Assembly (NCBI RefSeq): GCF_003010495.1
Contig: NZ_CP027570.1
Span: forward strand, 2,250,001 to 2,282,000
Origin: Megasphaera elsdenii DSM 20460
Lineage (GTDB): Bacteria > Bacillota > Negativicutes > Veillonellales > Megasphaeraceae
Direction: 5' to 3'
Length of the DNA: 32,000 nucleotides
This document shows, piece after piece, positions 231-30,417 of the stretch (its first letter is position 1; the number at the start of each line of letters is the position of its first letter). Under the pieces are notes generated by a model. That model was given only the letters and a program-made list of their open reading frames with translations. It ran no database searches and was not told where the DNA came from. The position numbers were made by a program, and so were the translations under genes.

Positions 231-1928
231 ATGAATGGTGTTGTTTTAGTCACCTGTGCTATCGTCATCTTGGCGGTAGCCTATCGGTTCTACGGCAAGT
301 GGCTGGCCAAGACGTGGGGCATCGATCCCAACGCCCTGACGCCGGCTCATCGCCTGGAAGACGGTCAGGATTATACGCCGTCTTCGAAATTCACGGTTTT
401 TGCCAATCAGTTCTCGTCCATTACCGGTGCCGGCCCTGTCACGGGTCCGATCATCGCCGCTGCGTACGGCTGGCTGCCGGCCTTCTTATGGCTTATGATC
501 GGCGGCGTCTTCTTCGGCGCTGTCCAGGACTTTGCCGCTCTCTATGCGTCCATGAAGAATGACGGCAAATCTATGGGCGTCCTCATCGAAAAGTATATCG
601 GCACGACGGGCCGCCGCCTGTTCCTGCTCTTCTGCTGGGTCTTCAGCCTGCTGGTCATCGCCGCTTTCGGCGATATCGTCGCTACGACGTTCAACGGCTT
701 CGCCAAGGATGGTTCCATGGTCCTGCCCAATGCCGCTGCCGCTTCCATTTCCATGTTGTTCATCTTCGTCGCCATCGCTTTTGGCCTGTTCATCAAGAAG
801 TTCAACCCCAGCGAAAAAGTCCGCTTCGTCATTGCTATCGTCCTCTTGATCGCCATGCTCTACGTCGGCATCGACCTGCCGATTTATCTGGACCGCATGA
901 CCTGGCTGTACATCATCTTCGCTTACATCTTCTTTGCGTCCATCATGCCCATGTGGCTCTTGAAACAGCCGCGTGACTATATCAGCGCCTTCCTGCTGCT
1001 CATGATGATCGCCGGCGGTGTCATCGGCATCTTCATCGCTCAGCCGACGCTGAACATGCCGGCCTTCACGTCCTTCTCTGTCGGCGGCAAGGATTTGTTC
1101 CCGATCCTGTTCATCACCATCGCCTGCGGGGCTGTTTCCGGGTTCCACAGCCTCGTTTCGTCCGGTACGTCGTCGAAGACGCTGGATAAGGAACAGGATG
1201 CCGTCTTCGTCGGCTATGGTTCCATGTGCGTCGAATCGGTCTTAGGCGTCGTATCCCTGGTCATCGCCTGCGCCGCCGCTTCCAACGGCCACGTCGCTTC
1301 GGGTACGCCCTTCCAGATTTTCTCCGGCGCTGTCGCCGGCTTCTTCACCATGTTCGGCCTGTCCCAGACCGCCGCTGCCTGCATCATGACCATGTGCGTT
1401 TCCGCCCTGGCCCTGACGACCCTCGATGCCGTCGGCCGTATCGGCCGTATGTCCTTCCAGGAACTCTTCAGCGTCGATGAAGGACAGGAAATGACGACAA
1501 TCCAGAAAATCTGCGTCAACAAATATTTCGCCACGGTCATCACGCTCTTCTTCGGCTTCCTGCTCTGCCTCGGCGGCTACATGAACATCTGGCCGCTCTT
1601 CGGCTCGGCCAACCAGCTGCTCTCGGCCATGGTCCTCATCTGCCTGACGGTCTTCCTCAAGACGACAGGCCGCAAGAGCTTCATGCTCTACGTCCCGATG
1701 GTCGTCATGTTCTGCGTCACCATGACGGCTCTCGTCGAATCGGCTTACGCCCTGATCATTAAGATCGCTTCGGGCAACTGGTCGCTCCTCATCGAAGGCC
1801 TGCAGTTCGTCCTGGCCATTGCTCTCATGGTCCTGGCTGTCTCCATCGTCTACCACTGCGGCAAAGAACTCATCCACGCCGACGATAAGACGGCACACCA
1901 AGACGCCCAGCCGACGGCTACGCATTGA
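231..1928 (+). CDS. cstA: carbon starvation protein A family transporter (CstA)
   Basis: 565-aa polytopic membrane ORF. N-terminus AVAYRFYGKWLAKTWGIDP and the SGFHSLVSSGTSSK motif are typical of CstA. AGGAGG at 218-223 lies 7 nt before the ATG. Confidence 0.9.
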   Translation: MNGVVLVTCAIVILAVAYRFYGKWLAKTWGIDPNALTPAHRLEDGQDYTPSSKFTVFANQFSSITGAGPVTGPIIAAAYGWLPAFLWLMIGGVFFGAVQDFAALYASMKNDGKSMGVLIEKYIGTTGRRLFLLFCWVFSLLVIAAFGDIVATTFNGFAKDGSMVLPNAAAASISMLFIFVAIAFGLFIKKFNPSEKVRFVIAIVLLIAMLYVGIDLPIYLDRMTWLYIIFAYIFFASIMPMWLLKQPRDYISAFLLLMMIAGGVIGIFIAQPTLNMPAFTSFSVGGKDLFPILFITIACGAVSGFHSLVSSGTSSKTLDKEQDAVFVGYGSMCVESVLGVVSLVIACAAASNGHVASGTPFQIFSGAVAGFFTMFGLSQTAAACIMTMCVSALALTTLDAVGRIGRMSFQELFSVDEGQEMTTIQKICVNKYFATVITLFFGFLLCLGGYMNIWPLFGSANQLLSAMVLICLTVFLKTTGRKSFMLYVPMVVMFCVTMTALVESAYALIIKIASGNWSLLIEGLQFVLAIALMVLAVSIVYHCGKELIHADDKTAHQDAQPTATH

Positions 1929-1930
1929 GA

Positions 1931-2039
1931 GTGTCAGCAGCTAGCAGTTAGCAGTTCGTAGGGGACGCCCAAAGGGCGTCCCGCAGAGTGCAGTTAGCTA
2001 TCAGCCATTAGCAGTTAGACACTAACGGCTAACCCCTAA
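1931..2039 (+). repeat. heptad-periodic arrays (CAGTTAG-type words) flanking a GC hairpin in the cstA 3' UTR
   Basis: gtgtCAG cagcTAG cagtTAG cagtTCG TAG at 1931-1961. Hairpin GGGGACGCCC-AAA-GGGCGTCCC at 1961-1982. Eight in-register heptamers at 1984-2039: cagagtg cagtTAG ctatCAG ccatTAG cagtTAG acacTAA cggcTAA ccccTAA. Confidence 0.7.
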
Positions 2040-2042
2040 AAA

Positions 2043-2073
2043 GGGCCTGTTGCATATGCAACGGACCCTTTTT
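2043..2073 (+). terminator. intrinsic terminator after cstA
   Basis: Stem GGGCCTGTTGCA / TGCAACGGACCC (one mismatch, one G-U) followed by TTTTT at 2069-2073. Confidence 0.7.
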
Positions 2074-2170
2074 ACTTATAAAAAATGTAATTTATAAAGT
2101 TAAATACTTATTTAGAGTCAAAAGTATAACGTTTTAATTATAAATTGTGAAAGTTTTCGCTTAAAATCCC

Positions 2171-9038: not shown

Positions 9039-9336
9039 TCAGGAACGATGCATCGGCTGTGGCCAGTGCATCGACGTCTGCCCGGGCAGCCTCATCGACC
9101 GCAACGACCAGGGCAAGGCGTGGATGCATTATCCCAAGGACTGTTGGGGCTGTGTGTCCTGCGTCAAGGAATGTCCGGTCCAGGCCATCGACTTCTACCT
9201 CGGCGCCGACATGGGTGGCCGGGGCAGCACGATGAACGTCACGGCGGACGGCCATTACCTGCATTGGCATATCCATCAGGCCGACGGGACGGAAAAGACC
9301 ATCACTGTCGACCGAAAACAGGCAAATTCGTATTGA
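9022..9336 (+). CDS. aprB: AprB-like 2x[4Fe-4S] ferredoxin subunit
   Basis: CIGCGQCIDVCP and CWGCVSCVKECP cluster motifs. Overlaps aprA by 17 nt. GGAGGGG RBS at 9010-9016. Confidence 0.65.
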   Translation: MSIRINQERCIGCGQCIDVCPGSLIDRNDQGKAWMHYPKDCWGCVSCVKECPVQAIDFYLGADMGGRGSTMNVTADGHYLHWHIHQADGTEKTITVDRKQANSY

Positions 9337-9374: not shown

Positions 9375-9456
9375 ATTTGTCGTTTGATGTTTGACGTTTG
9401 AAGTTTGACGCATAGACGCACATCAAACATCATACATCAAACATCACACATCAAAA
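9375..9456. repeat. inverted arrays of TGA-containing heptamers forming a long imperfect hairpin (aprB-cysD junction)
   Basis: Left arm atttgtc gtttgat gtttgac gtttgaa gtttgac at 9375-9409. Core GCATAGACGCA. Right arm catcaaa catcata catcaaa catcaca catcaaa at 9421-9455. The arms are about 80% complementary and no T-run follows. Confidence 0.7.
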
Positions 9457-9474
9457 CATAGGGGGATTCATATT

Positions 9475-10374
9475 ATGTGTGCATTATCGCATCTCGACAA
9501 GTTAGAGGCCGAAGCGATTTACATCATCCGCGAAGTTGCCGCGGAATGTGAAAAGCCGGTCATGCTCTATTCTATCGGCAAGGACAGTTCTGTCATGCTT
9601 CACCTGGCCCTCAAGGCCTTTTATCCGGAAAAGCCGCCTTTCCCGTTCCTCCATGTCAATACGACGTGGAAGTTCAAAGAAATGATCCGCTTCCGCGATG
9701 AAACCATGAAGAAATATGGTCTGCAGCTCATTGAATACATCAATCAGGAAGGGGTCAAACAGGGCGTCAATCCCTTTGACTATGGCGCAGCCTATACGGA
9801 TATCATGAAGACCCAGGCCCTCAAGCAGGCGCTCAACAAATACGGCTTCACCGCTGCTTTTGGCGGTGGCCGCCGGGACGAAGAAAAATCCCGCGCCAAA
9901 GAACGTATCTTTTCCTTCCGCAATGAAGCCCAGGCCTGGGACCCGAAGAACCAGCGCCCGGAAATGTGGAAGCTCTACAATACGCACATCCATAAAGGCG
10001 AAAGCATGCGCGTATTCCCGATTTCCAACTGGACGGAAAAAGATATCTGGCAGTATATCAAACGGGAAAACATCGACATCGTGTCCTTGTATTTCGCCAA
10101 AGAACGGCCCTGCGTCTATCGCGATGGCAACATCATCATGGTCGACGACGACCGCATGCGCCTCAAGCCGGGAGAAGAAATCATGCACAAGAAGATCCGC
10201 TTCCGTACTTTGGGATGCTATCCTTTGACAGGGGGCATCGAATCCGATGCCGATACGCTGGATGCCATCATCGATGAAACACTGAGCGCCGTCTCGTCGG
10301 AACGGACGAGCCGCGTCATCGATAATGAAGCAGCCGGCAGCATGGAACGCAGAAAGAGAGAGGGGTATTTCTAA
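9475..10374 (+). CDS. cysD: sulfate adenylyltransferase subunit 2
   Basis: [19 protein letters not shown]-reductase/ATP-sulfurylase fold motif [14 protein letters not shown], and C-terminal [10 protein letters not shown], as in CysD. Confidence 0.92.
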
Positions 10375-15757: not shown

Positions 15758-16525
15758 ATGTACAACGACGAATACGCAGCTTCTGCAGCCGGTGCGGCCG
15801 CCAAGGTCGGCCTGCTGAAGAAGAACCCCTTAGGCTATTTCCTCATGTCGGCTTTAGCCGGCGCCTACATCGGCTTCGGTATCCTCCTGTCCTTTACCGT
15901 CAGCGGTACCCTCGGTGCTATTCCTATGACGAAGATCGCCATGGGCCTGTCCTTTGGCATCGCCTTGAGTCTGGTCGTCATCGCCGGGGCAGAACTGTTC
16001 ACGGGCAATGCCTTCGTCCTCTACAACGGCTGGCGTTCGAAGACGGTCACTTTGACGGACGTCGTCCGCCTGTGGGTCGTCTGCTACCTGGGCAACTGGT
16101 TCGGCGCCATCGTCTTGTCCCTGATTTTCTACGGTGCTGCCGGCACGGCTGGCGGCACCGGTCAGGCCCTGGCCAATGCCGCTGCCATGAAGATGAGCCT
16201 GCCGCCGCTGGTACTCTTCCTCAAAGGCATCCTCTGTAACGTCCTGGTCTGCCTGGCCGTCTGGTGCGGCTTCCGCTGTAAATCGGACAGCGGCAAACTG
16301 ATCATGGTCTTCTGGTGCCTCTACGCCTTCTTTACCTGTGGCTTTGAACACAGCGTAGCCAACATGACCGTCCTGACCCTGGGCCTGCTGAATCCCGCCG
16401 GCACGGCCGTCAGCGTCGGCGGTTATCTCTACAACCTGGCCTTTGTCACCTTGGGCAACATCGTCGGTGCCATCCTCTTCTTGTCCATTCCCTACGGCAT
16501 TGCAGCGAAGAAGATTGGTGATTAG
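15758..16525 (+). CDS. formate/nitrite transporter (FNT) family channel, probable hydrosulfide channel
   Basis: 255-aa six-TM FNT-like ORF (AGAELFTGN, FEHSVANM). Lies 10 nt after asrC with a GGGAGGAG RBS. Confidence 0.85.
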   Translation: MYNDEYAASAAGAAAKVGLLKKNPLGYFLMSALAGAYIGFGILLSFTVSGTLGAIPMTKIAMGLSFGIALSLVVIAGAELFTGNAFVLYNGWRSKTVTLTDVVRLWVVCYLGNWFGAIVLSLIFYGAAGTAGGTGQALANAAAMKMSLPPLVLFLKGILCNVLVCLAVWCGFRCKSDSGKLIMVFWCLYAFFTCGFEHSVANMTVLTLGLLNPAGTAVSVGGYLYNLAFVTLGNIVGAILFLSIPYGIAAKKIGD

Positions 16526-16553
16526 TGGCTCGTGGCTAGTGGTTCGTGGCTCT
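16519..16553 (+). repeat. heptad array TGATTAG TGGCTCG TGGCTAG TGGTTCG TGGCTCT in register with the FNT stop codon
   Basis: Five exact 7-nt units. The TAG of the first unit (16523-16525) is the gene's stop codon. The same words recur at 30257-30291 and on the minus strand at 30376-30417. Confidence 0.75.
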
Positions 16554-16620
16554 CCTTATAGGAGAGCTGTCAGCGAAGCTGACTGAGAGGTTGCTCTTTC
16601 TTTATAGTAGTCCGTGAGTT

Positions 16621-16697
16621 GTAGGGGCACACGTGGGATGCCCGTCAGGAATGATAGGACATATCCCGGAGCGGGCTCGCCACGTGCGAGCCCCTAC
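16621..16697. other. 77-nt extended stem-loop in the 3' UTR
   Basis: GTAGGGGC (16621-16628) pairs with GCCCCTAC (16690-16697). CACGTGG (16630-16636) pairs with CCACGTG (16680-16686). Preceded by hairpins at 16550-16566 and 16569-16583. Confidence 0.55.
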
Positions 16698-16705
16698 AGA
16701 AAAAA

Positions 16706-16736
16706 GGACCTGTCGCAAATGCGACAGGTCCTTTTT
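16706..16736. terminator. bidirectional intrinsic terminator shared by the asr-FNT operon and the convergent lexA-crp unit
   Basis: AAAAAA then GGACCTGTCGC, AAAT loop, GCGACAGGTCC, then TTTTT. Perfect 11-bp stem. Confidence 0.85.
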
Positions 16737-17398
16737 CAATACAGCGTCACGCGCTGCTGGTCTATTTCGATGAGGCCATCGGCCTTCATATGGCTCAGTT
16801 CCCGGGCTACGGCGGTCCGGTCGGCACAGAGGTAATCGGCCAGCTGGGTCCGGGTTATGGGGATGGTGAAGGTCGGACTGCCAACCTGTTCGGACTGGAA
16901 GGAGAAGTACGTCAGCAATTTCTTGCGCAGCGTTTTTTTGGAAATGACTTCGAGCTTTTCCAGGAGCTGGGCATTCTTATCGGCCATGAGGCGGAGCATG
17001 TTTTCAATGAGCTGAAAATGGAAGGGGCAGGCATTGGTACAGACATGCAGGACCTTGTGGAAGGGCAGGACCAGGAATTTCGTGTTCTTTACTGCCTGGA
17101 AGGTCACGATGGATTGAAGTACCGTACCACAGACAAAGGTTTCTCCAAAGAGACCGCCGCTGCGGATGACGGCCAGGACGGCCTTGTCGCCCCAGCGGTC
17201 TTCGTGGATCATGTGGATTTCTCCGCTGAGGACGATGCCGATGTAGCGCACTTCATCCTGAGCCAGGACCAGAAATTCGCCTTTGCGGACGGTCCGGACC
17301 CGCGCACCCAGGCAGGTGAGCATGGCCATGCGCTTGTCGGGGCTGATGCCGGTAAAGAAGGGGAGGTCATCGGGCAGGATGGGTAAAGAATCAGTCAT
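16736..17398 (-). CDS. Crp/Fnr family transcriptional regulator
   Basis: 220 aa with an N-terminal cNMP-binding-like beta-barrel (GEFLVLAQDE, GGLFGE) and a C-terminal HTH (TRTQLADYLCADRTAVARELSHMKADGLI). GGAGG RBS. Confidence 0.85.
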   Translation of the reverse strand: MTDSLPILPDDLPFFTGISPDKRMAMLTCLGARVRTVRKGEFLVLAQDEVRYIGIVLSGEIHMIHEDRWGDKAVLAVIRSGGLFGETFVCGTVLQSIVTFQAVKNTKFLVLPFHKVLHVCTNACPFHFQLIENMLRLMADKNAQLLEKLEVISKKTLRKKLLTYFSFQSEQVGSPTFTIPITRTQLADYLCADRTAVARELSHMKADGLIEIDQQRVTLY

Positions 17399-27351: not shown

Positions 27352-27399
27352 ATCCGTGTACATGTACTCATTGACGTACATGTACACGGATGATAAAAT
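27352..27399 (+). promoter_or_regulatory. yefM-yoeB promoter with a perfect 16-bp inverted-repeat operator
   Basis: ATCCGTGTACATGTAC (27352-27367) and GTACATGTACACGGAT (27376-27391) are exact reverse complements. TTGACG at 27371-27376, 17-nt spacer, TAAAAT at 27394-27399. Confidence 0.65.
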
Positions 27400-27975: not shown

Positions 27976-28120
27976 GTCTATGAAGAATTAATAATACATT
28001 AGGGCTTATTGCGCCAAAACAGGCCATGGAAAAACAGTTGAAGGCTTATGACAAAGAACTACGAAATAAGGATGGCGGTAACTGATGATTGCTTTTTCGA
28101 GAGCTTTTTGTGAATTTTTA

Positions 28121-28188
28121 AGCGGCTTTTTAGCGGCTTTAGGTTTTCAGCAAGTTTTTTGCCGACTTTTTTGCCGATATTTTGCCGA
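28121..28188. repeat. phased 11-12-bp short direct repeats (iteron-like)
   Basis: AGCGGCTTT at 28121 and 28132 (period 11). TTTTGCCGA at 28157, 28169 and 28180 (periods 12 and 11). No ORF. Confidence 0.5.
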
Positions 28189-28423
28189 TTTTGATATGAA
28201 AAACGAGGAAATTTGGCAGTTATTGAGAAAAAGTGAAAGTGGTATTACTTGTTAAATAAATGGCTTAGTTATGCTGGATAGAAAGTGTTACAATATGCAC
28301 CTCCATTCTCATTTAAAATAACTTACGATAATTTAACGTTATCGGAAGTAATAATACTTCTAACTCCACCCCGTACTGCTAATGACTATAAAATCACTAT
28401 ATTTCTAGTAATTCACTATCATT

Positions 28424-28447
28424 AATGATATCTACAATGATATCTAC
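28424..28447. repeat. perfect tandem 12-mer AATGATATCTAC x2
   Basis: 28424-28435 equals 28436-28447. Each copy contains the GATATC palindrome. A related AATGACTATA lies at 28381. Confidence 0.6.
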
Positions 28448-28897: not shown

Positions 28898-30256
28898 ATG
28901 CAGCGATTTTTGTCTTACGAAAATACGATTTTAGCTGTCGTCATGATGGTGTCTTTTATCAACCCTTTTACCAGCAGCGCTTTGACGACGGCTTTGCCTG
29001 GGATTGGTACGGCTTATGGTGCGACGGATGCCCAGCTCAGTTGGGTCATTGAGTTGTTCTTGATTTCTTCGACGGTGACGATTATGCCAATCAGCAAGAT
29101 TGCCGACCGGATTGGCAAGCGTCATGTCTTCTTGTTTGGTGTATCCTTATTCTGTGTCTCGTCACTGGCTGTGTATTTTGTGACTTCCCTCTATGGCTTA
29201 TTTTTACTGCGCATCTTGCAAGGCCTGGGCAGTGCCAGTATTTTTGCCACCAGCATGGCCATCGTCTCCCTGGTCACCCCGCCGGAACGTCGCGGCCGGG
29301 CTATGGGCTTTACCATTGCCGCTGTGTATTGCGGGCTGTCCTTTGGTCCGGTTCTGGGCGGTTTCTTTTCTTATTACCTGGGCTGGAAGACAATTTTTTA
29401 TTTTATCGCCATTATCTGTGCCGTGGCCTGGCTGATTGCCCTGTATAGCATGAAAAAAGAAGAATGGATTGTCAATTCCCATGGCAGTCTGGATTTGTTT
29501 GGTAGCCTCTTATATGCCCTGGCTATGATTGCCATTATGGTTGGCTTATCGGAAGTAACGAGTCTTTTCTATGCTAAATATCTCTTGGCCGCCGGCTTCA
29601 TCCTGTTCCTGGTGTTCTTGTATGGTGAATGGCACCAGAAAAGCCCGGTCCTGCCCGTCCGTATTTTTGCCGACAATCGCGTGTTTTCCTGTTCCAGTTT
29701 GGCAGCTATGCTCAACTATTGTGCAACTTTTGGCATCAGTTTCCTCTTGTCCATTTATTTGCAGCGCATTACCGGCCTCAATGCCCGTGACACGGGACTC
29801 GTCCTATTGCTCCAACCGGTGCTGATGGCGCTCTTGTCCCCTGTCACCGGAGCGCTGTCGGACCGTATCAATCCCGCCGTCCTGGCTTCTTCCGGTATGA
29901 TTTTGATTACCTTCGGTCTCTCCTGTCTGGCAATCAATGTCTCTCTTTCTTCCTTCTGGCTCATTGCCCTGGCCCTGGTCATCATCGGCATCGGTTTTGC
30001 CCTGTTCACGGCGCCGAATAATAACGCGATTATGGGATCCGTGGCACCCAAATATTATGGGGCTGCTTCATCGGTCGTCAGTACGGTCCGCCTCATCGGC
30101 CAGGTCCTCAGCGTGGCCATCATCACCTTGATTTTGTCGCAAAGCGGCGCCGCGGCTGCATCGGACTGGTTGGCCCATCATATTCAGCAAGCCTTCATTG
30201 TTTTCACGATTCTCTGTGCCATTGGTATTGTCCCTTCAGCAGCACGGAGTAAGTGA
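28898..30256 (+). CDS. MFS transporter, 14-TM DHA2 (EmrB/QacA-like) type
   Basis: About 452 aa, multi-TM, with MFS motif-A-like ADRIGKRHVF and LQGLGSA. GGAGG at 28884-28888 lies 9 nt before ATG 28898. The ORF-track start at 28829 is a TTG inside the -35 box. Confidence 0.85.
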   Translation: MQRFLSYENTILAVVMMVSFINPFTSSALTTALPGIGTAYGATDAQLSWVIELFLISSTVTIMPISKIADRIGKRHVFLFGVSLFCVSSLAVYFVTSLYGLFLLRILQGLGSASIFATSMAIVSLVTPPERRGRAMGFTIAAVYCGLSFGPVLGGFFSYYLGWKTIFYFIAIICAVAWLIALYSMKKEEWIVNSHGSLDLFGSLLYALAMIAIMVGLSEVTSLFYAKYLLAAGFILFLVFLYGEWHQKSPVLPVRIFADNRVFSCSSLAAMLNYCATFGISFLLSIYLQRITGLNARDTGLVLLLQPVLMALLSPVTGALSDRINPAVLASSGMILITFGLSCLAINVSLSSFWLIALALVIIGIGFALFTAPNNNAIMGSVAPKYYGAASSVVSTVRLIGQVLSVAIITLILSQSGAAAASDWLAHHIQQAFIVFTILCAIGIVPSAARSK

Positions 30257-30291
30257 TGATTCGTGGTTAGTAGTTAGTGATTAGTGGTTCG
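30250..30291 (+). repeat. heptad array TAAGTGA TGATTCG TGGTTAG TAGTTAG TGATTAG TGGTTCG in register with the MFS stop codon
   Basis: Six exact 7-nt units. The TGA of unit 1 (30254-30256) is the stop codon, and unit 2 starts with a second in-frame TGA. The array runs straight into the terminator stem. Confidence 0.75.
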
Positions 30292-30292
30292 C

Positions 30293-30342
30293 AAAAGAGG
30301 ATGCTGCATTAAGCCAAAAACGCTAATGCAACATCCTCTTTT
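30293..30342. terminator. bidirectional intrinsic terminator between convergent genes
   Basis: AAAA then AGAGGATGCTGCATTA (30296-30311) paired with TAATGCAACATCCTCT (30324-30339), 15 of 16 bp, then TTTT. Confidence 0.8.
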
Positions 30343-30372: not shown

Positions 30373-30417
30373 TTACGAGCCACGAGCCATTAACCACGAG
30401 CCACTAACAACTATTTC
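30373..30417 (-). repeat. minus-strand heptad array GAAATAG TTGTTAG TGGCTCG TGGTTAA TGGCTCG TGGCTCG TAA in register with the stop codon of the 30411-30944 gene
   Basis: Read on the minus strand from 30417 down to 30373. The TAG of unit 1 (complement of 30411-30413) is the gene's stop. Same word family as 16519-16553. Confidence 0.75.

Follow-up and report, generated by a model that had tools for sequence, protein, structure and literature searches.

A REP hairpin embedded in heptanucleotide repeats downstream of cstA in Megasphaera elsdenii is probably repetitive intergenic DNA

We analyzed 32,000 nt of Megasphaera elsdenii DSM 20460 (contig NZ_CP027570.1, positions 2,250,001 to 2,282,000, forward strand), hereafter the window; its sequence is identical to that in record HE576794.1 of this strain. 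Near its start lies cstA, which encodes a 565-aa carbon starvation protein A and ends in a TGA stop codon at 1926–1928. Between this stop and the cstA terminator stands a GC hairpin (GGGACGCCC-AAA-GGGCGTCCC, 1962–1982), flanked on both sides by 7-nt units that begin at 1931, 3' of the stop, and continue on the right side as eight in-register units (1984–2039). A preliminary description of this DNA had given this order and these positions correctly. It had also called the 7-nt register exact, which overstates the regularity: the units are 57–100% alike, and the left and right arms are 4 nt out of phase. The inserted element (see below) has inverted ends, AGTGTC (1930–1935) and GACACT (2018–2023), and an inverted repeat at 2008–2032 forms a second, small hairpin, TTAGCAGTTAG-ACA-CTAACGGCTAA. 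The orientation of the array flips at 2019–2021, and thus the last three TAA words are TTAG words in reverse complement. Stop triplets do rotate through the frames as described, occurring in all three frames and on both strands between 1929 and 2042. Many units, here and in the other arrays of the window, carry TCG, CAG, or CTC instead of TAG, and at most two or three consecutive units at this site carry TAG.

Table 1. Features of the cstA 3' region (site 1) and the four other heptamer arrays in the window
Feature	Position	Strand	Basis or remark
cstA (carbon starvation protein A) CDS	231–1928	+	ORF; Pfam PF02554 CstA for identical product
Strain-variable 100-nt insertion: left array, REP, right array	1927–2026	+	Alignment of filled and empty alleles
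Left heptamer array GCAGCTA GCAGTTA GCAGTTC	1937–1957	+	In register into GTAGGGG of the REP
REP: GTAG tag, perfect 9-bp palindrome GGGACGCCC AAA GGGCGTCCC, then GC	1958–1984	+	Sequence
Right heptamer array GCAGAGT GCAGTTA GCTATCA GCCATTA GCAGTTA G	1983–2018	+	Lag-7 identity; predicted pairing with left array
Inverted units ACACTAA CGGCTAA CCCCTAA	2019–2039	+	Reverse complement of TTAG words
cstA intrinsic terminator: A-tract, stem-loop, T-tract	2037–2074	+	19-nt arms, 89% complementary
Site 2: (TTTGAYG)x5 and inverted (CATCAMA)x5	9376–9455	+	Fold z = -3.3; inverted repeat
Site 3: GTGATTA GTGGCTC GTGGCTA GTGGTTC GTGGCTC	16519–16553	+	Period-7 scan
Site 4: GTGGTTA GTAGTTA GTGATTA GTGGTTC array	30256–30291	+	Begins at TGA stop of MFS transporter gene
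Site 5: TAGTTGT TAGTGGC TCGTGGT TAATGGC TCGTGGC TCG	30375–30413	-	Begins at TAG stop of convergent gene

The 7-nt periodicity is above chance. Lag-7 identity is 17/24 for the left arm and 29/49 for the right (1984–2039), the other lags from 3 to 12 come nowhere near, and the right-arm score of 29 was reached in 0 of 20,000 shuffles. A scan of the window recovered five period-7 segments, compared with 0.1 in dinucleotide shuffles and 0–1 segments at periods 5, 8, 10, and 11. These are exactly the five places listed in the preliminary description, and within the window they show an enrichment of the kind that it proposed to check across the genome. All five arrays lie between ORFs. Megasphaera-like DNA (933 kb) contains 234 period-7 segments, compared with 8–13 for periods 5, 8, 10, and 11; this and the other cross-genome censuses sample loci that were fetched by the patterns searched for, so they are biased, and their counts are among the matches listed.

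Sites 2–5 share only part of the architecture of site 1, which the earlier reading had taken to recur with different words. All are heptamer arrays that abut gene ends, each paired with an inverted partner; the centers differ: site 2 has a small loop there, sites 4 and 5 have a bidirectional terminator (30293–30342), and none of these has a REP hairpin. Site 2 lies between a ferredoxin-like gene (stop 9334–9336) and an ATG at 9475, site 3 overlaps the TAG stop of a formate/nitrite-transporter gene, and sites 4 and 5 are inverted partners of each other. Folding predictions place the arms in long imperfect hairpins (z = -5.5, -3.3, and -6.9, the last for sites 4 and 5), in which the left array pairs with the right array at site 1. 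In four of the five cases, the array overlaps a stop codon or begins no more than 3 nt from one, and a terminator lies downstream. All five follow the same strand rule: the G-rich strand is sense after a stop and antisense upstream of a start. Across phyla, arrays after stops have their G-rich, TAG-bearing strand in sense orientation in 42 cases vs 18, and the rule holds in 30 vs 15 cases at starts (a biased sample). The inverted partner lies 3' of the array in 19 cases and never 5' of it, and identical array words are present in at least 10 phyla.

As for the words themselves, 73% of Megasphaera heptamer occurrences fit the template G-N-N-G-N-T-N, compared with 20% of random heptamers (again a biased census). 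Those in the window (GCAGYTA, GTGGYTM, and TTTGAYG) contain no GGG tracts, and thus the four or more tracts of at least three G residues that make a quadruplex are absent. GGGGTTA arrays occur at other Megasphaera loci. Heptameric repeats have been reported from cyanobacteria, Xanthomonas, and Beggiatoaceae, and their function is not known (PMC4692102, PMC4679880); they are transcribed, they are found in sense orientation at most 50 bp from stops or in antisense orientation upstream of ORFs, and their lengths differ between close relatives (PMC4692102). The Megasphaera arrays belong with them: they have at least three tandem units above chance, are non-coding, obey the strand rule, and vary in length by whole units.

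The cstA element is polymorphic. It is missing from three of ten strains with 100% identical CstA (L001, L004, and L009), a presence/absence polymorphism of the kind that the preliminary description had suggested looking for in related strains. In the empty alleles, the stop is TAG rather than TGA and the protein is the same 565 aa; the terminator is unchanged, with its hairpin already 14 nt 3' of the stop, and the last two units, CGGCTAA and CCCCTAA, are also present. Pairwise alignment of the window with an empty allele gives one 100-nt gap and a G/A substitution at 2027. With this one extra substitution and no target duplication, the junction is not of the clean transposase type. We rejected a reading of the insertion as 105 nt (15 heptamers) because the alignment resolves the difference into 100 nt and an unrelated 5-nt indel. 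A 4-nt CATT duplication combined with two events is possible and less parsimonious, and no intermediate allele occurs among the strains compared.

The empty alleles do not cluster by flanking SNPs, so insertion is not distinguishable from deletion. A cstA homologue of 89% identity has different synteny and no arrays, and homologues of 75% identity (33% GC) have neither arrays nor REPs. Since the cstA 3' regions of these relatives hold no comparable element, they do not polarize the ancestral state. No donor copy of the site 1 arms was seen outside the cstA locus in all loci fetched; thus, transposition of the whole 100-nt unit is unproven.

Unit numbers vary as well, with arrays gaining or losing 7, 14, or 21 nt at a time between strains. 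The left array at site 1 has one more unit in L003, L005, and L007 and one fewer in L006 and L010, while L002 and L005 have 14 extra nt in the inverted-unit region (2019–2039), giving length steps of -7, +7, and +14 nt at this site. In L014, site 4 is shorter by 7 nt and site 5 by 14 nt. Strains with an identical protein are hypervariable at site 3: two GTGGCTC units are present in the shortest allele, and others are 14, 18, 34, 57, and 63 nt longer, the longer ones including 21-nt higher-order repeats, with the remaining intergenic DNA conserved. Copy number at site 2 is constant in the nine strains where its flanking anchors were located, which could mean constraint.

The hairpin at the center of site 1 is a REP. 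REPs are palindromes of 20–50 nt that follow a conserved tetranucleotide, usually GTAG (PMC8266576), and positions 1958–1982 consist of GTAG followed by GGGACGCCC-AAA-GGGCGTCCC. The identical 25-mer occurs on gut metagenome contigs in at least 120 instances, with at least 32 far-flank contexts and at least 85 immediate-flank variants, and one copy lies away from cstA, in the dut-nudix intergenic region of another Megasphaera genome. The hairpin is one of a REP family scattered across Megasphaera genomes. Within about 50 kb of DSM 20460, there are only two GTAG-tagged palindromes: this exact copy and one related GTAG..CTAC palindrome. The REP matched viral contigs only once, so it is not obviously phage-borne. 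Among the matches listed, 34 of 85 contexts have a co-oriented ORF whose stop lies no more than 15 nt from the GTAG end, compared with 2 of 85 for the other end; GTAG termini of REPs often provide a TAG stop (PMC3733652). Also among the matches listed, 17 of 85 contexts show a lag-7 periodicity of at least 16/28 that sets in at the 3' foot of the REP, compared with 2 of 170 controls.

A candidate transposase accompanies the family. RAYTs, the REP transposases, are found largely in gamma-proteobacteria and also in other, distant genera (PMC8266576). A RAYT-like ORF of 149 aa, known from M. elsdenii-labelled records and metagenome contigs and not from DSM 20460 itself, is flanked there by REP/iREP pairs, the arrangement called a REPtron. 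Its Pfam match is Y1_Tnp, with 34.9 bits (cut-off 23); the best match in NCBIfam is 'REP-associated tyrosine transposase' (REP_Tyr_transpos) at 72.4 bits, under the equivalog cut-off of 80, and its best PDB match is 4ER8 TnpArep. A protein 97% identical to it is labelled Megasphaera elsdenii. The REP..iREP units that flank the gene are 206–237 nt long and contain (GTGGYTC)n. A tblastn search of 120 RAYT homologues against 120 cross-phylum loci gave no matches, as expected of a single-copy gene.

Altogether, these observations make it probable that the feature behind cstA is repetitive, largely selfish or neutral intergenic DNA, composed of a REP and heptanucleotide simple-sequence repeats. Both kinds of element are known in other bacteria and were not previously described in Megasphaera. 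The preliminary description had thus been essentially right in offering a REP/MITE-like selfish element for the hairpin and the whole insertion, given a GTAG palindrome dispersed over many contexts, a RAYT-like gene flanked by REPs, and the polymorphism at cstA. Its statement that no standard feature class accounts for the arrays does not stand, as REPs and heptameric simple-sequence repeats have both been described (PMC8266576, PMC3733652, PMC4692102, PMC4679880).

Under this explanation, the REP would have been spread by a RAYT, which presumably acts on hairpins in single-stranded DNA. The heptamer words, mostly of the form G-N-N-G-N-T-N, stand in register on both sides of the REP, and their inverted arms are predicted to make a long imperfect hairpin. 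The whole 100-nt unit would have entered the cstA stop codon behind its first base, T, with the terminator already in place farther downstream, and the protein would be unchanged because the junction rebuilt the stop, TAG becoming TGA. The arrays would then lengthen and shorten by slipped-strand mispairing, one to three units per step. The stops in all frames, which not every unit carries, stem from the words' (C/T)TAG core. These stops probably also reflect a survivorship filter, in which elements that enter or extend into a gene end are tolerated only when the reading frame ends at once. A dedicated RNA-binding protein is not required, and any effect on cstA mRNA, such as that of a REP-type 3' stem-loop, would be incidental. 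The polarity of arrays and REPs toward gene ends is not explained by neutral slippage.

One alternative is a selected RNA-level device in the 3' UTR, namely an all-frame stop or insulator, or an mRNA-stabilizing stem-loop, that tunes the upstream gene. The placement of four arrays at or within 3 nt of a stop and upstream of a terminator, the sense orientation of the TAG strand after stops, the GTAG ends turned toward stops, the stops in all frames and both strands at site 1, the stable structures predicted, and the conserved copy number at site 2 are all in keeping with such a device. In E. coli, REPs near stop codons reportedly affect translation, as Liang, Rudd and Deutscher are said to have found in 2015. 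On the other side, three of ten strains dispense with the cstA element and have a terminator hairpin close behind the stop, the unit number at site 3 is free to vary from two GTGGCTC units up to +63 nt, and many units do not hold a stop. Post-transcriptional roles have been ascribed to REP/BIME elements (PMC8266576), whereas a regulatory role did not emerge from transcriptomes for analogous repeats (PMC4692102). We therefore regard a selected RNA device as unlikely, though it fares best among the alternatives.

Somewhat less likely still is that the REP transposase itself makes or maintains the arrays, each unit being a GTAG-like guide or cleavage motif plus 3 nt. Repeated cutting and rejoining of single-stranded DNA beside a hairpin would then gain or lose units, and the arrays would be a by-product or substrate of the RAYT instead of a result of polymerase slippage. 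The template that most words fit would suit such a process, as would the arrays that run in register into GTAGGGG or begin at the 3' foot of a REP, and the (GTGGYTC)n tracts within the REP..iREP units around the RAYT gene. Arrays and REPs also share a polarity, with the 5' G-rich or GTAG end outward and the inverted partner always on the 3' side, and RAYT cleavage falls at CT or CA dinucleotides on the 5' or the 3' side of a REP, with GTAG helping to choose the site (PMC8266576). However, only one of the five arrays in the window adjoins a REP, which indicates that arrays are independent of an adjacent REP, and GC hairpins show no clear enrichment next to arrays across phyla (7 and 3 of 122, compared with 9 of 418 controls). 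In addition, heptamers from other bacteria (GGGAATC and TAACTGA) fall outside the template, the 14-, 18-, and 21-nt steps resemble ordinary slippage or unequal exchange, and the proposal is drawn from sequence patterns, including a word census biased by the way loci were fetched.

HutP recognizes UAG triplets spaced by 4 nt; its site comprises two sets of three such triplets with 4-nt spacers in a conserved leader, where binding relieves a terminator, and a TRAP site comprises 9–11 (G/U)AG triplets 2–3 nt apart. Site 1 differs from the first in its at most two or three consecutive TAG units, its 3' UTR position, its absence from three of ten strains, and its variable unit number, and from the second in its 4-nt spacing. 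The preliminary description had raised a landing pad for an oligomeric HutP- or TRAP-like protein, to which a cold-shock or S1-type binder reading triplets every 7 nt may be added; despite the HutP-like geometry, the presumed transcription of arrays that lie between stop codon and terminator, and the S1, Csp, or CsrA-type binders proposed for TAACTGA repeats (PMC4679880), we consider this very improbable, since the element is dispensable and unit numbers vary at sites 1, 3, 4, and 5, the words differ between arrays (CAGTTAG, TTTGAYG, GTGGYTM) and often have UCG or CAG for UAG, the predicted folds leave the arms base-paired instead of single-stranded, and arrays of identical words occur in so many phyla.

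Other classes were also considered. Rfam at the gathering threshold gave only a SAM riboswitch in the whole window, permissive Rfam scans of 1900–2100 and 16480–16760 gave only terminator-like chance matches, and a tRNA/tmRNA search of the window gave none. The word GCTAGTGG is similar to GCTGGTGG, the E. coli Chi sequence; we rejected this candidate, the same words being present in phyla with different recombination hotspots. MITEs are bounded by terminal inverted repeats, duplicate their target site, and occur as multiple near-identical copies. The cstA insertion has the inverted ends; its junction is not duplicated, and the loci fetched hold no further copy of the arms.

For annotation, reading the feature as selfish or neutral repeats means that such arrays and hairpins in Megasphaera are REP-type and simple-sequence repeats rather than binding sites of regulatory proteins. 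Their unit-step variability offers strain-typing markers for a gut and rumen species of probiotic interest. M. elsdenii combines heptamer arrays, a REP family, and a transposase, at times physically fused, and it is a compact, cultivable, and population-sampled system in which to ask why 7-nt repeats gather in bacterial intergenic DNA with fixed polarity toward gene ends. The natural filled and empty alleles permit direct tests of mRNA 3' ends, stability, and translation termination. If arrays were in fact made by the RAYT, this would supply a mechanistic origin and an explanation of polarity for at least part of the heptamer repeats described since the cyanobacterial STRR, and it would define a Negativicutes REP mosaic with tandem 7-mers as an integral module.

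The closest known counterparts of the hairpin are the REP/BIME/REPIN elements with their RAYT (TnpA-REP) in E. coli, Pseudomonas, and Stenotrophomonas. Like these, the Megasphaera REPs combine a GTAG with a perfect GC-rich palindrome of short length (group-3 style), are dispersed in many copies over intergenic DNA, just past stops, with GTAG sometimes giving the TAG (PMC8266576, PMC3733652), form REP/iREP pairs of about 200–240 nt, and flank a single Y1/HuH transposase gene. The Megasphaera system differs in its host, a Negativicute (Bacillota), in its low copy density in DSM 20460, in a transposase that scores just below the NCBIfam equivalog cut-off, and in REPs embedded in register with heptamer arrays, which is not described for BIMEs in the REP literature compared.

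The arrays, in turn, resemble the cyanobacterial STRR, the GGGAATC/GGGGAYT repeats of Xanthomonas and Nostoc, the TAACTGA repeats of Beggiatoaceae, and the 'long SSR' of Mrazek 2007. In common are the 7-nt unit, the strictly intergenic location, the strand rule at stops (within 50 bp or overlapping) and starts, inverted pairs able to form stem-loops, and length increments of 7 nt between relatives. Points of difference are that the words of the window (GTGGYTM, GCAGYTM, TTTGAYG) cannot form G-quadruplexes and are degenerate within an array, and that arrays in Megasphaera are fused to REPs and to further small repeat modules; the groups covered by the earlier reports do not include Negativicutes.

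Two further systems share some features. The HutP and TRAP sites of Bacillus subtilis also have regularly spaced UAG or (G/U)AG triplets near a terminator, but they are conserved 5' leaders or inter-cistronic attenuators of one operon, whereas the Megasphaera arrays lie in the 3' UTRs of unrelated genes, are variable or absent between strains, include units without UAG, and are paired in the predicted folds. The MITE-like Correia/NEMIS, RUP, and BOX elements share with the cstA insertion a unit of about 100 nt, inverted ends, presence/absence, and location at gene ends; they differ from it in that the insertion shows no target-site duplication or second arm copy, and its dispersed part is only the 27-nt REP.

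Re-reading of positions 1921-2080 reproduced the sequence given in the preliminary description. HE576794.1, the DSM 20460 chromosome (2.47 Mb), also encodes the exact CstA protein, as do many gut-metagenome contigs, and the window matches that chromosome without a difference over the 11,928 and 13,103 nt compared. M. elsdenii belongs to the Negativicutes (family Veillonellaceae). At site 1, the heptamer arrays and GC hairpin 3' of cstA, lag-7 identity is 17/24 left of the hairpin and 29/49 right of it, only lag 7 stands out among lags 3-12, and none of 20,000 right-arm shuffles reached 29 lag-7 matches. A whole-window scan found five period-7 segments versus 0.1 in dinucleotide-preserving shuffles, and 0-1 segments for each other period that is not a multiple of three. 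These five are exactly the places named beforehand, all lie between ORFs, and Tandem Repeats Finder agrees; Rfam returned no family matching the array regions of the window. The exact 7-nt register claimed for site 1 holds as a periodicity but not in its exactness, as units are degenerate and the two arms are out of phase. Likewise, the final "TAA words" are present, yet they are the reverse complement of TTAG words, with array orientation flipping at 2019-2021. These 7-nt words belong to the class of heptameric simple-sequence repeats.

Features of the window (window positions)
Feature	Position	Remarks
cstA	231-1928	ORF; product with Pfam CstA
Hairpin GGGACGCCC-AAA-GGGCGTCCC	1962-1982	
Intrinsic terminator	2037-2074	3' of hairpin
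SAM riboswitch	2351-2448	82 bits; upstream of cysteine-synthase-like gene
Site 2, period-7 array	9376-9455	
Site 3, period-7 array	16519-16553	
Two-hairpin repeat	16549-16595	GGCTCTCC-ttata-GGAGAGC + TGTCAGC-gaa-GCTGAC + TGAGAGGTTG
GTAGGGG...CCCCTAC long imperfect palindrome	16621-16698	GTAG-tagged, REP-like; kept in 10/10 strains
Bidirectional terminator	16701-16736	directly downstream of the preceding palindrome
Perfect palindrome, 17-bp arms (CCGTGTACATGTAC...GTACATGTACACGG)	27352-27391	just upstream of PhdYeFM/YoeB-type antitoxin-toxin pair
11-12-nt tandem repeats	28116-28192; 28381-28447	AT-rich stretch
Site 4, period-7 array	30256-30291	
Site 5, period-7 array	30375-30413	minus strand

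The cstA 3' element shows the presence/absence polymorphism for which a check had been proposed: it is missing from three of ten contigs with 100% identical CstA (L001, L004 and L009). The sequence of these empty alleles is ...GCATTAGCTAACCCCTAAAAAGGG..., in which the stop is TAG and the terminator follows after 14 nt. In pairwise alignment, filled and empty alleles differ by a single gap, exactly 100 nt long, at window 1927-2026 and by a G/A difference at 2027; an additional 5 nt of length stem from an unrelated indel close to 2240. The insert, with ends AGTGTC...GACACT, starts after the first base (T) of the cstA stop codon, and the junction makes a TGA that replaces TAG, leaving the CstA protein untouched. 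Across the seven filled alleles, the unit count of the left array goes up or down by one, and the right end can be 14 nt longer. Flanking SNPs do not cluster the empty alleles across the ten contigs, and in close relatives either synteny at cstA is missing or such repeats are altogether absent; thus, the difference is formally compatible with insertion or deletion.

The other arrays vary in length to different degrees. One strain of ten has a site 4 shorter by 7 nt and a site 5 shorter by 14 nt, and the number of units at site 2 is constant across the nine strains in which this site was locatable. Site 3 is hypervariable between strains with identical transporter protein: the shortest allele has two GTGGCTC units, others are longer by 14, 18, 34, 57, and 63 nt, with 21-nt higher-order repeats in the longer ones, while the remaining 150 nt of the intergenic region are conserved. 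The first unit of this array is the coding end GTGATTAG, which some strains carry in duplicate. Such unit-step changes may arise through slippage.

A repetitive extragenic palindrome (REP) is defined as GTAG followed by a palindrome (PMC8266576), and the cstA hairpin, GTAG plus a perfect 9-bp palindrome, fits this definition and is classified here as a REP by its sequence. The exact REP 25-mer, GTAGGGGACGCCCAAAGGGCGTCCC, occurs at least 120 times in metagenome contigs, in at least 32 contexts by distant-flank clustering and 85 variants by immediate flanks among the matches listed. The contigs are unlabelled, and their assignment to Megasphaera comes from RAYT (REP-associated tyrosine transposase) identity, shared modules, and the cstA locus (L176). 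In another Megasphaera genome, the 25-mer is bordered by a dUTPase terminator on one side and a Nudix gene on the other, and the ~50 kb of DSM 20460 compared contain a single exact REP, besides the related GTAGGGG...CCCCTAC palindrome at 16621-16698. Among the matches listed, the GTAG end is within 15 nt of the stop of a co-oriented ORF (≥80 aa) in 34/85 contexts, and the other end in only two. This polarity agrees with the remark that GTAG REP termini often supply a TAG stop (PMC3733652).

A contig carrying three REP copies encodes, between REPs, a 149-aa ORF with a HuH motif that scores above threshold for Pfam Y1_Tnp. Its highest-scoring NCBIfam match, "REP-associated tyrosine transposase", reaches 72.4 bits (cut-off 80), and its nearest solved structure is E. 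coli TnpArep, 4ER8. An NCBI "transposase [Megasphaera elsdenii]" is 97% identical, and remoter matches are named RayT. On an M. elsdenii-labelled contig, the RAYT-like gene is flanked by 206-237-nt units, each a REP plus an inverted REP (iREP); by its arrangement, this locus is a REPtron. We infer that the transposase spread the REP. The proposal of a REP/MITE-like element is largely borne out by the GTAG palindrome, dispersed copies, RAYT-like gene, and empty alleles.

Arrays frequently abut REPs: lag-7 periodicity reaching 16/28 or more begins at the REP 3' foot in 17/85 contexts versus 2/170 control windows, and at the 5' side in 4/85 (contexts among the matches listed). The module (GTGGYTC)n is internal to REP..iREP units, and a G-N-N-G-N-T-N template accounts for 73% of heptamer word occurrences versus 20% of random heptamers in a census biased by locus fetching. 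A REP is missing beside four of the five window arrays, no fetched locus contains a second copy of the site-1 arms, and GC hairpins show no clear enrichment beside cross-phylum arrays. In predicted folds, array arms are base-paired to an inverted partner, with the REP capping the structure at site 1 (z = -5.5), a small loop at site 2 (z = -3.3), and a bidirectional terminator between the arms at sites 4 and 5 (z = -6.9). We conclude that arrays and REPs represent two distinct classes of repeat that occupy a common niche and combine into mosaics in Megasphaera; a causal connection between them is no more than a lead.

The suggestion that the arrays are a landing pad for an RNA-binding protein is contradicted by several findings: the cstA element is dispensable, unit numbers and words vary, and the arms are predicted to pair. 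The array stops derive from a (C/T)TAG core (complement CTA(A/G)) and from TGA in TTTGAYG, and many units have TCG, CAG, or CTC instead. They may reflect a filter, in which repeats landing on or growing into a gene end would be kept only if the frame closed at once. Arrays and REPs may be neutral; a role in the 3' UTR is conceivable.

The two-hairpin repeat, seen 41 times across 32 fetched loci and without an Rfam family, has two covarying stems (e.g., GTCAGC/GCTGAC, GGCC/GGCC, GGCCGCC/GGCGGTC) and a GAGAGGTTG tail conserved despite this covariation; it could be a structured RNA or a further mosaic-repeat module. The core GATGGCTTTAAATTTAAA(A/G)CCATC is conserved at L001 3540-3620, in L003, L005-L007, and L009, and in 27 loci in all; it sits between terminators and has inverted heptamer arrays on either side (GTTTGTA.../...TACAAAC or TTAG/CTAA words). 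It is not in the window; at its position, after an SLH/YadA-like gene, DSM 20460 has a wholly different allele with NNNCTAA units. A sulfate-transport and sulfate-reduction cluster lies 3' of cstA, also downstream of the SAM riboswitch, and the perfect palindrome is possibly the operator of its neighboring antitoxin-toxin pair. The DNA upstream of the MFS transporter gene (loci L011-L020) looks like an integration hot spot, since it varies between strains, with prophage genes in some and a T4SS/MobA conjugative element in others.

Heptamer arrays extend well beyond the window. In 933 kb of Megasphaera-like DNA, there are 234 period-7 segments versus 8-13 each for periods 5, 8, 10, and 11. Scanning one genome per species for GTGGYTMGTGGYTMGTGGYT gave at least 120 matches, those listed including Acidobacteriota, Planctomycetota, Chloroflexota, Cyanobacteria, Bacteroidota, Kiritimatiellae, several proteobacterial classes, Actinomycetota, and Megasphaera. 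At 122 arrays among the matches listed, stops were those of a co-oriented ORF at the 5' side (42) or an opposite-strand ORF at the 3' side (18), and starts those of an opposite-strand ORF at the 5' side (30) or a co-oriented ORF at the 3' side (15); these counts are approximate because ORFs were called by a crude length filter. Whether the nearest gene end is a stop or a start, it is the G-rich strand that faces it. Inverted partners of GTGGYTA arrays, among the matches listed, lie at the 3' side in 19 cases and the 5' side in none. In Megasphaera sp. WILCCON 0056 (L099 229-404), one 176-nt array changes its word three times in register, from (GTGGCTA)4 through (GGGGCTA/GGGGTTA)10 and (GTGGYTC)9 into GTAGGGG; a G-quadruplex could form in its central block.

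TAACTGA repeats of Beggiatoaceae, cyanobacteria, and Bacteroidetes have indels "in 7 nt increments" (PMC4679880). As cited there, Mrazek 2007 found heptanucleotides to be the commonest long repeat class in most genomes, with polymerase slippage as a possible cause. The polarity of the arrays had already been described, in one paper, for other heptamers. Those GGGAATC and GGGGAYT repeats, from Xanthomonas and Nostoc, overlap stop codons, are transcribed, form inverted pairs, and vary in length among close relatives, and their authors judged their function unknown (PMC4692102). Their G-rich strand reads away from the adjoining gene, sense after stops and antisense before starts (PMC4692102). All five window arrays obey this rule, an orientation that they share with the Xanthomonas and Nostoc repeats.
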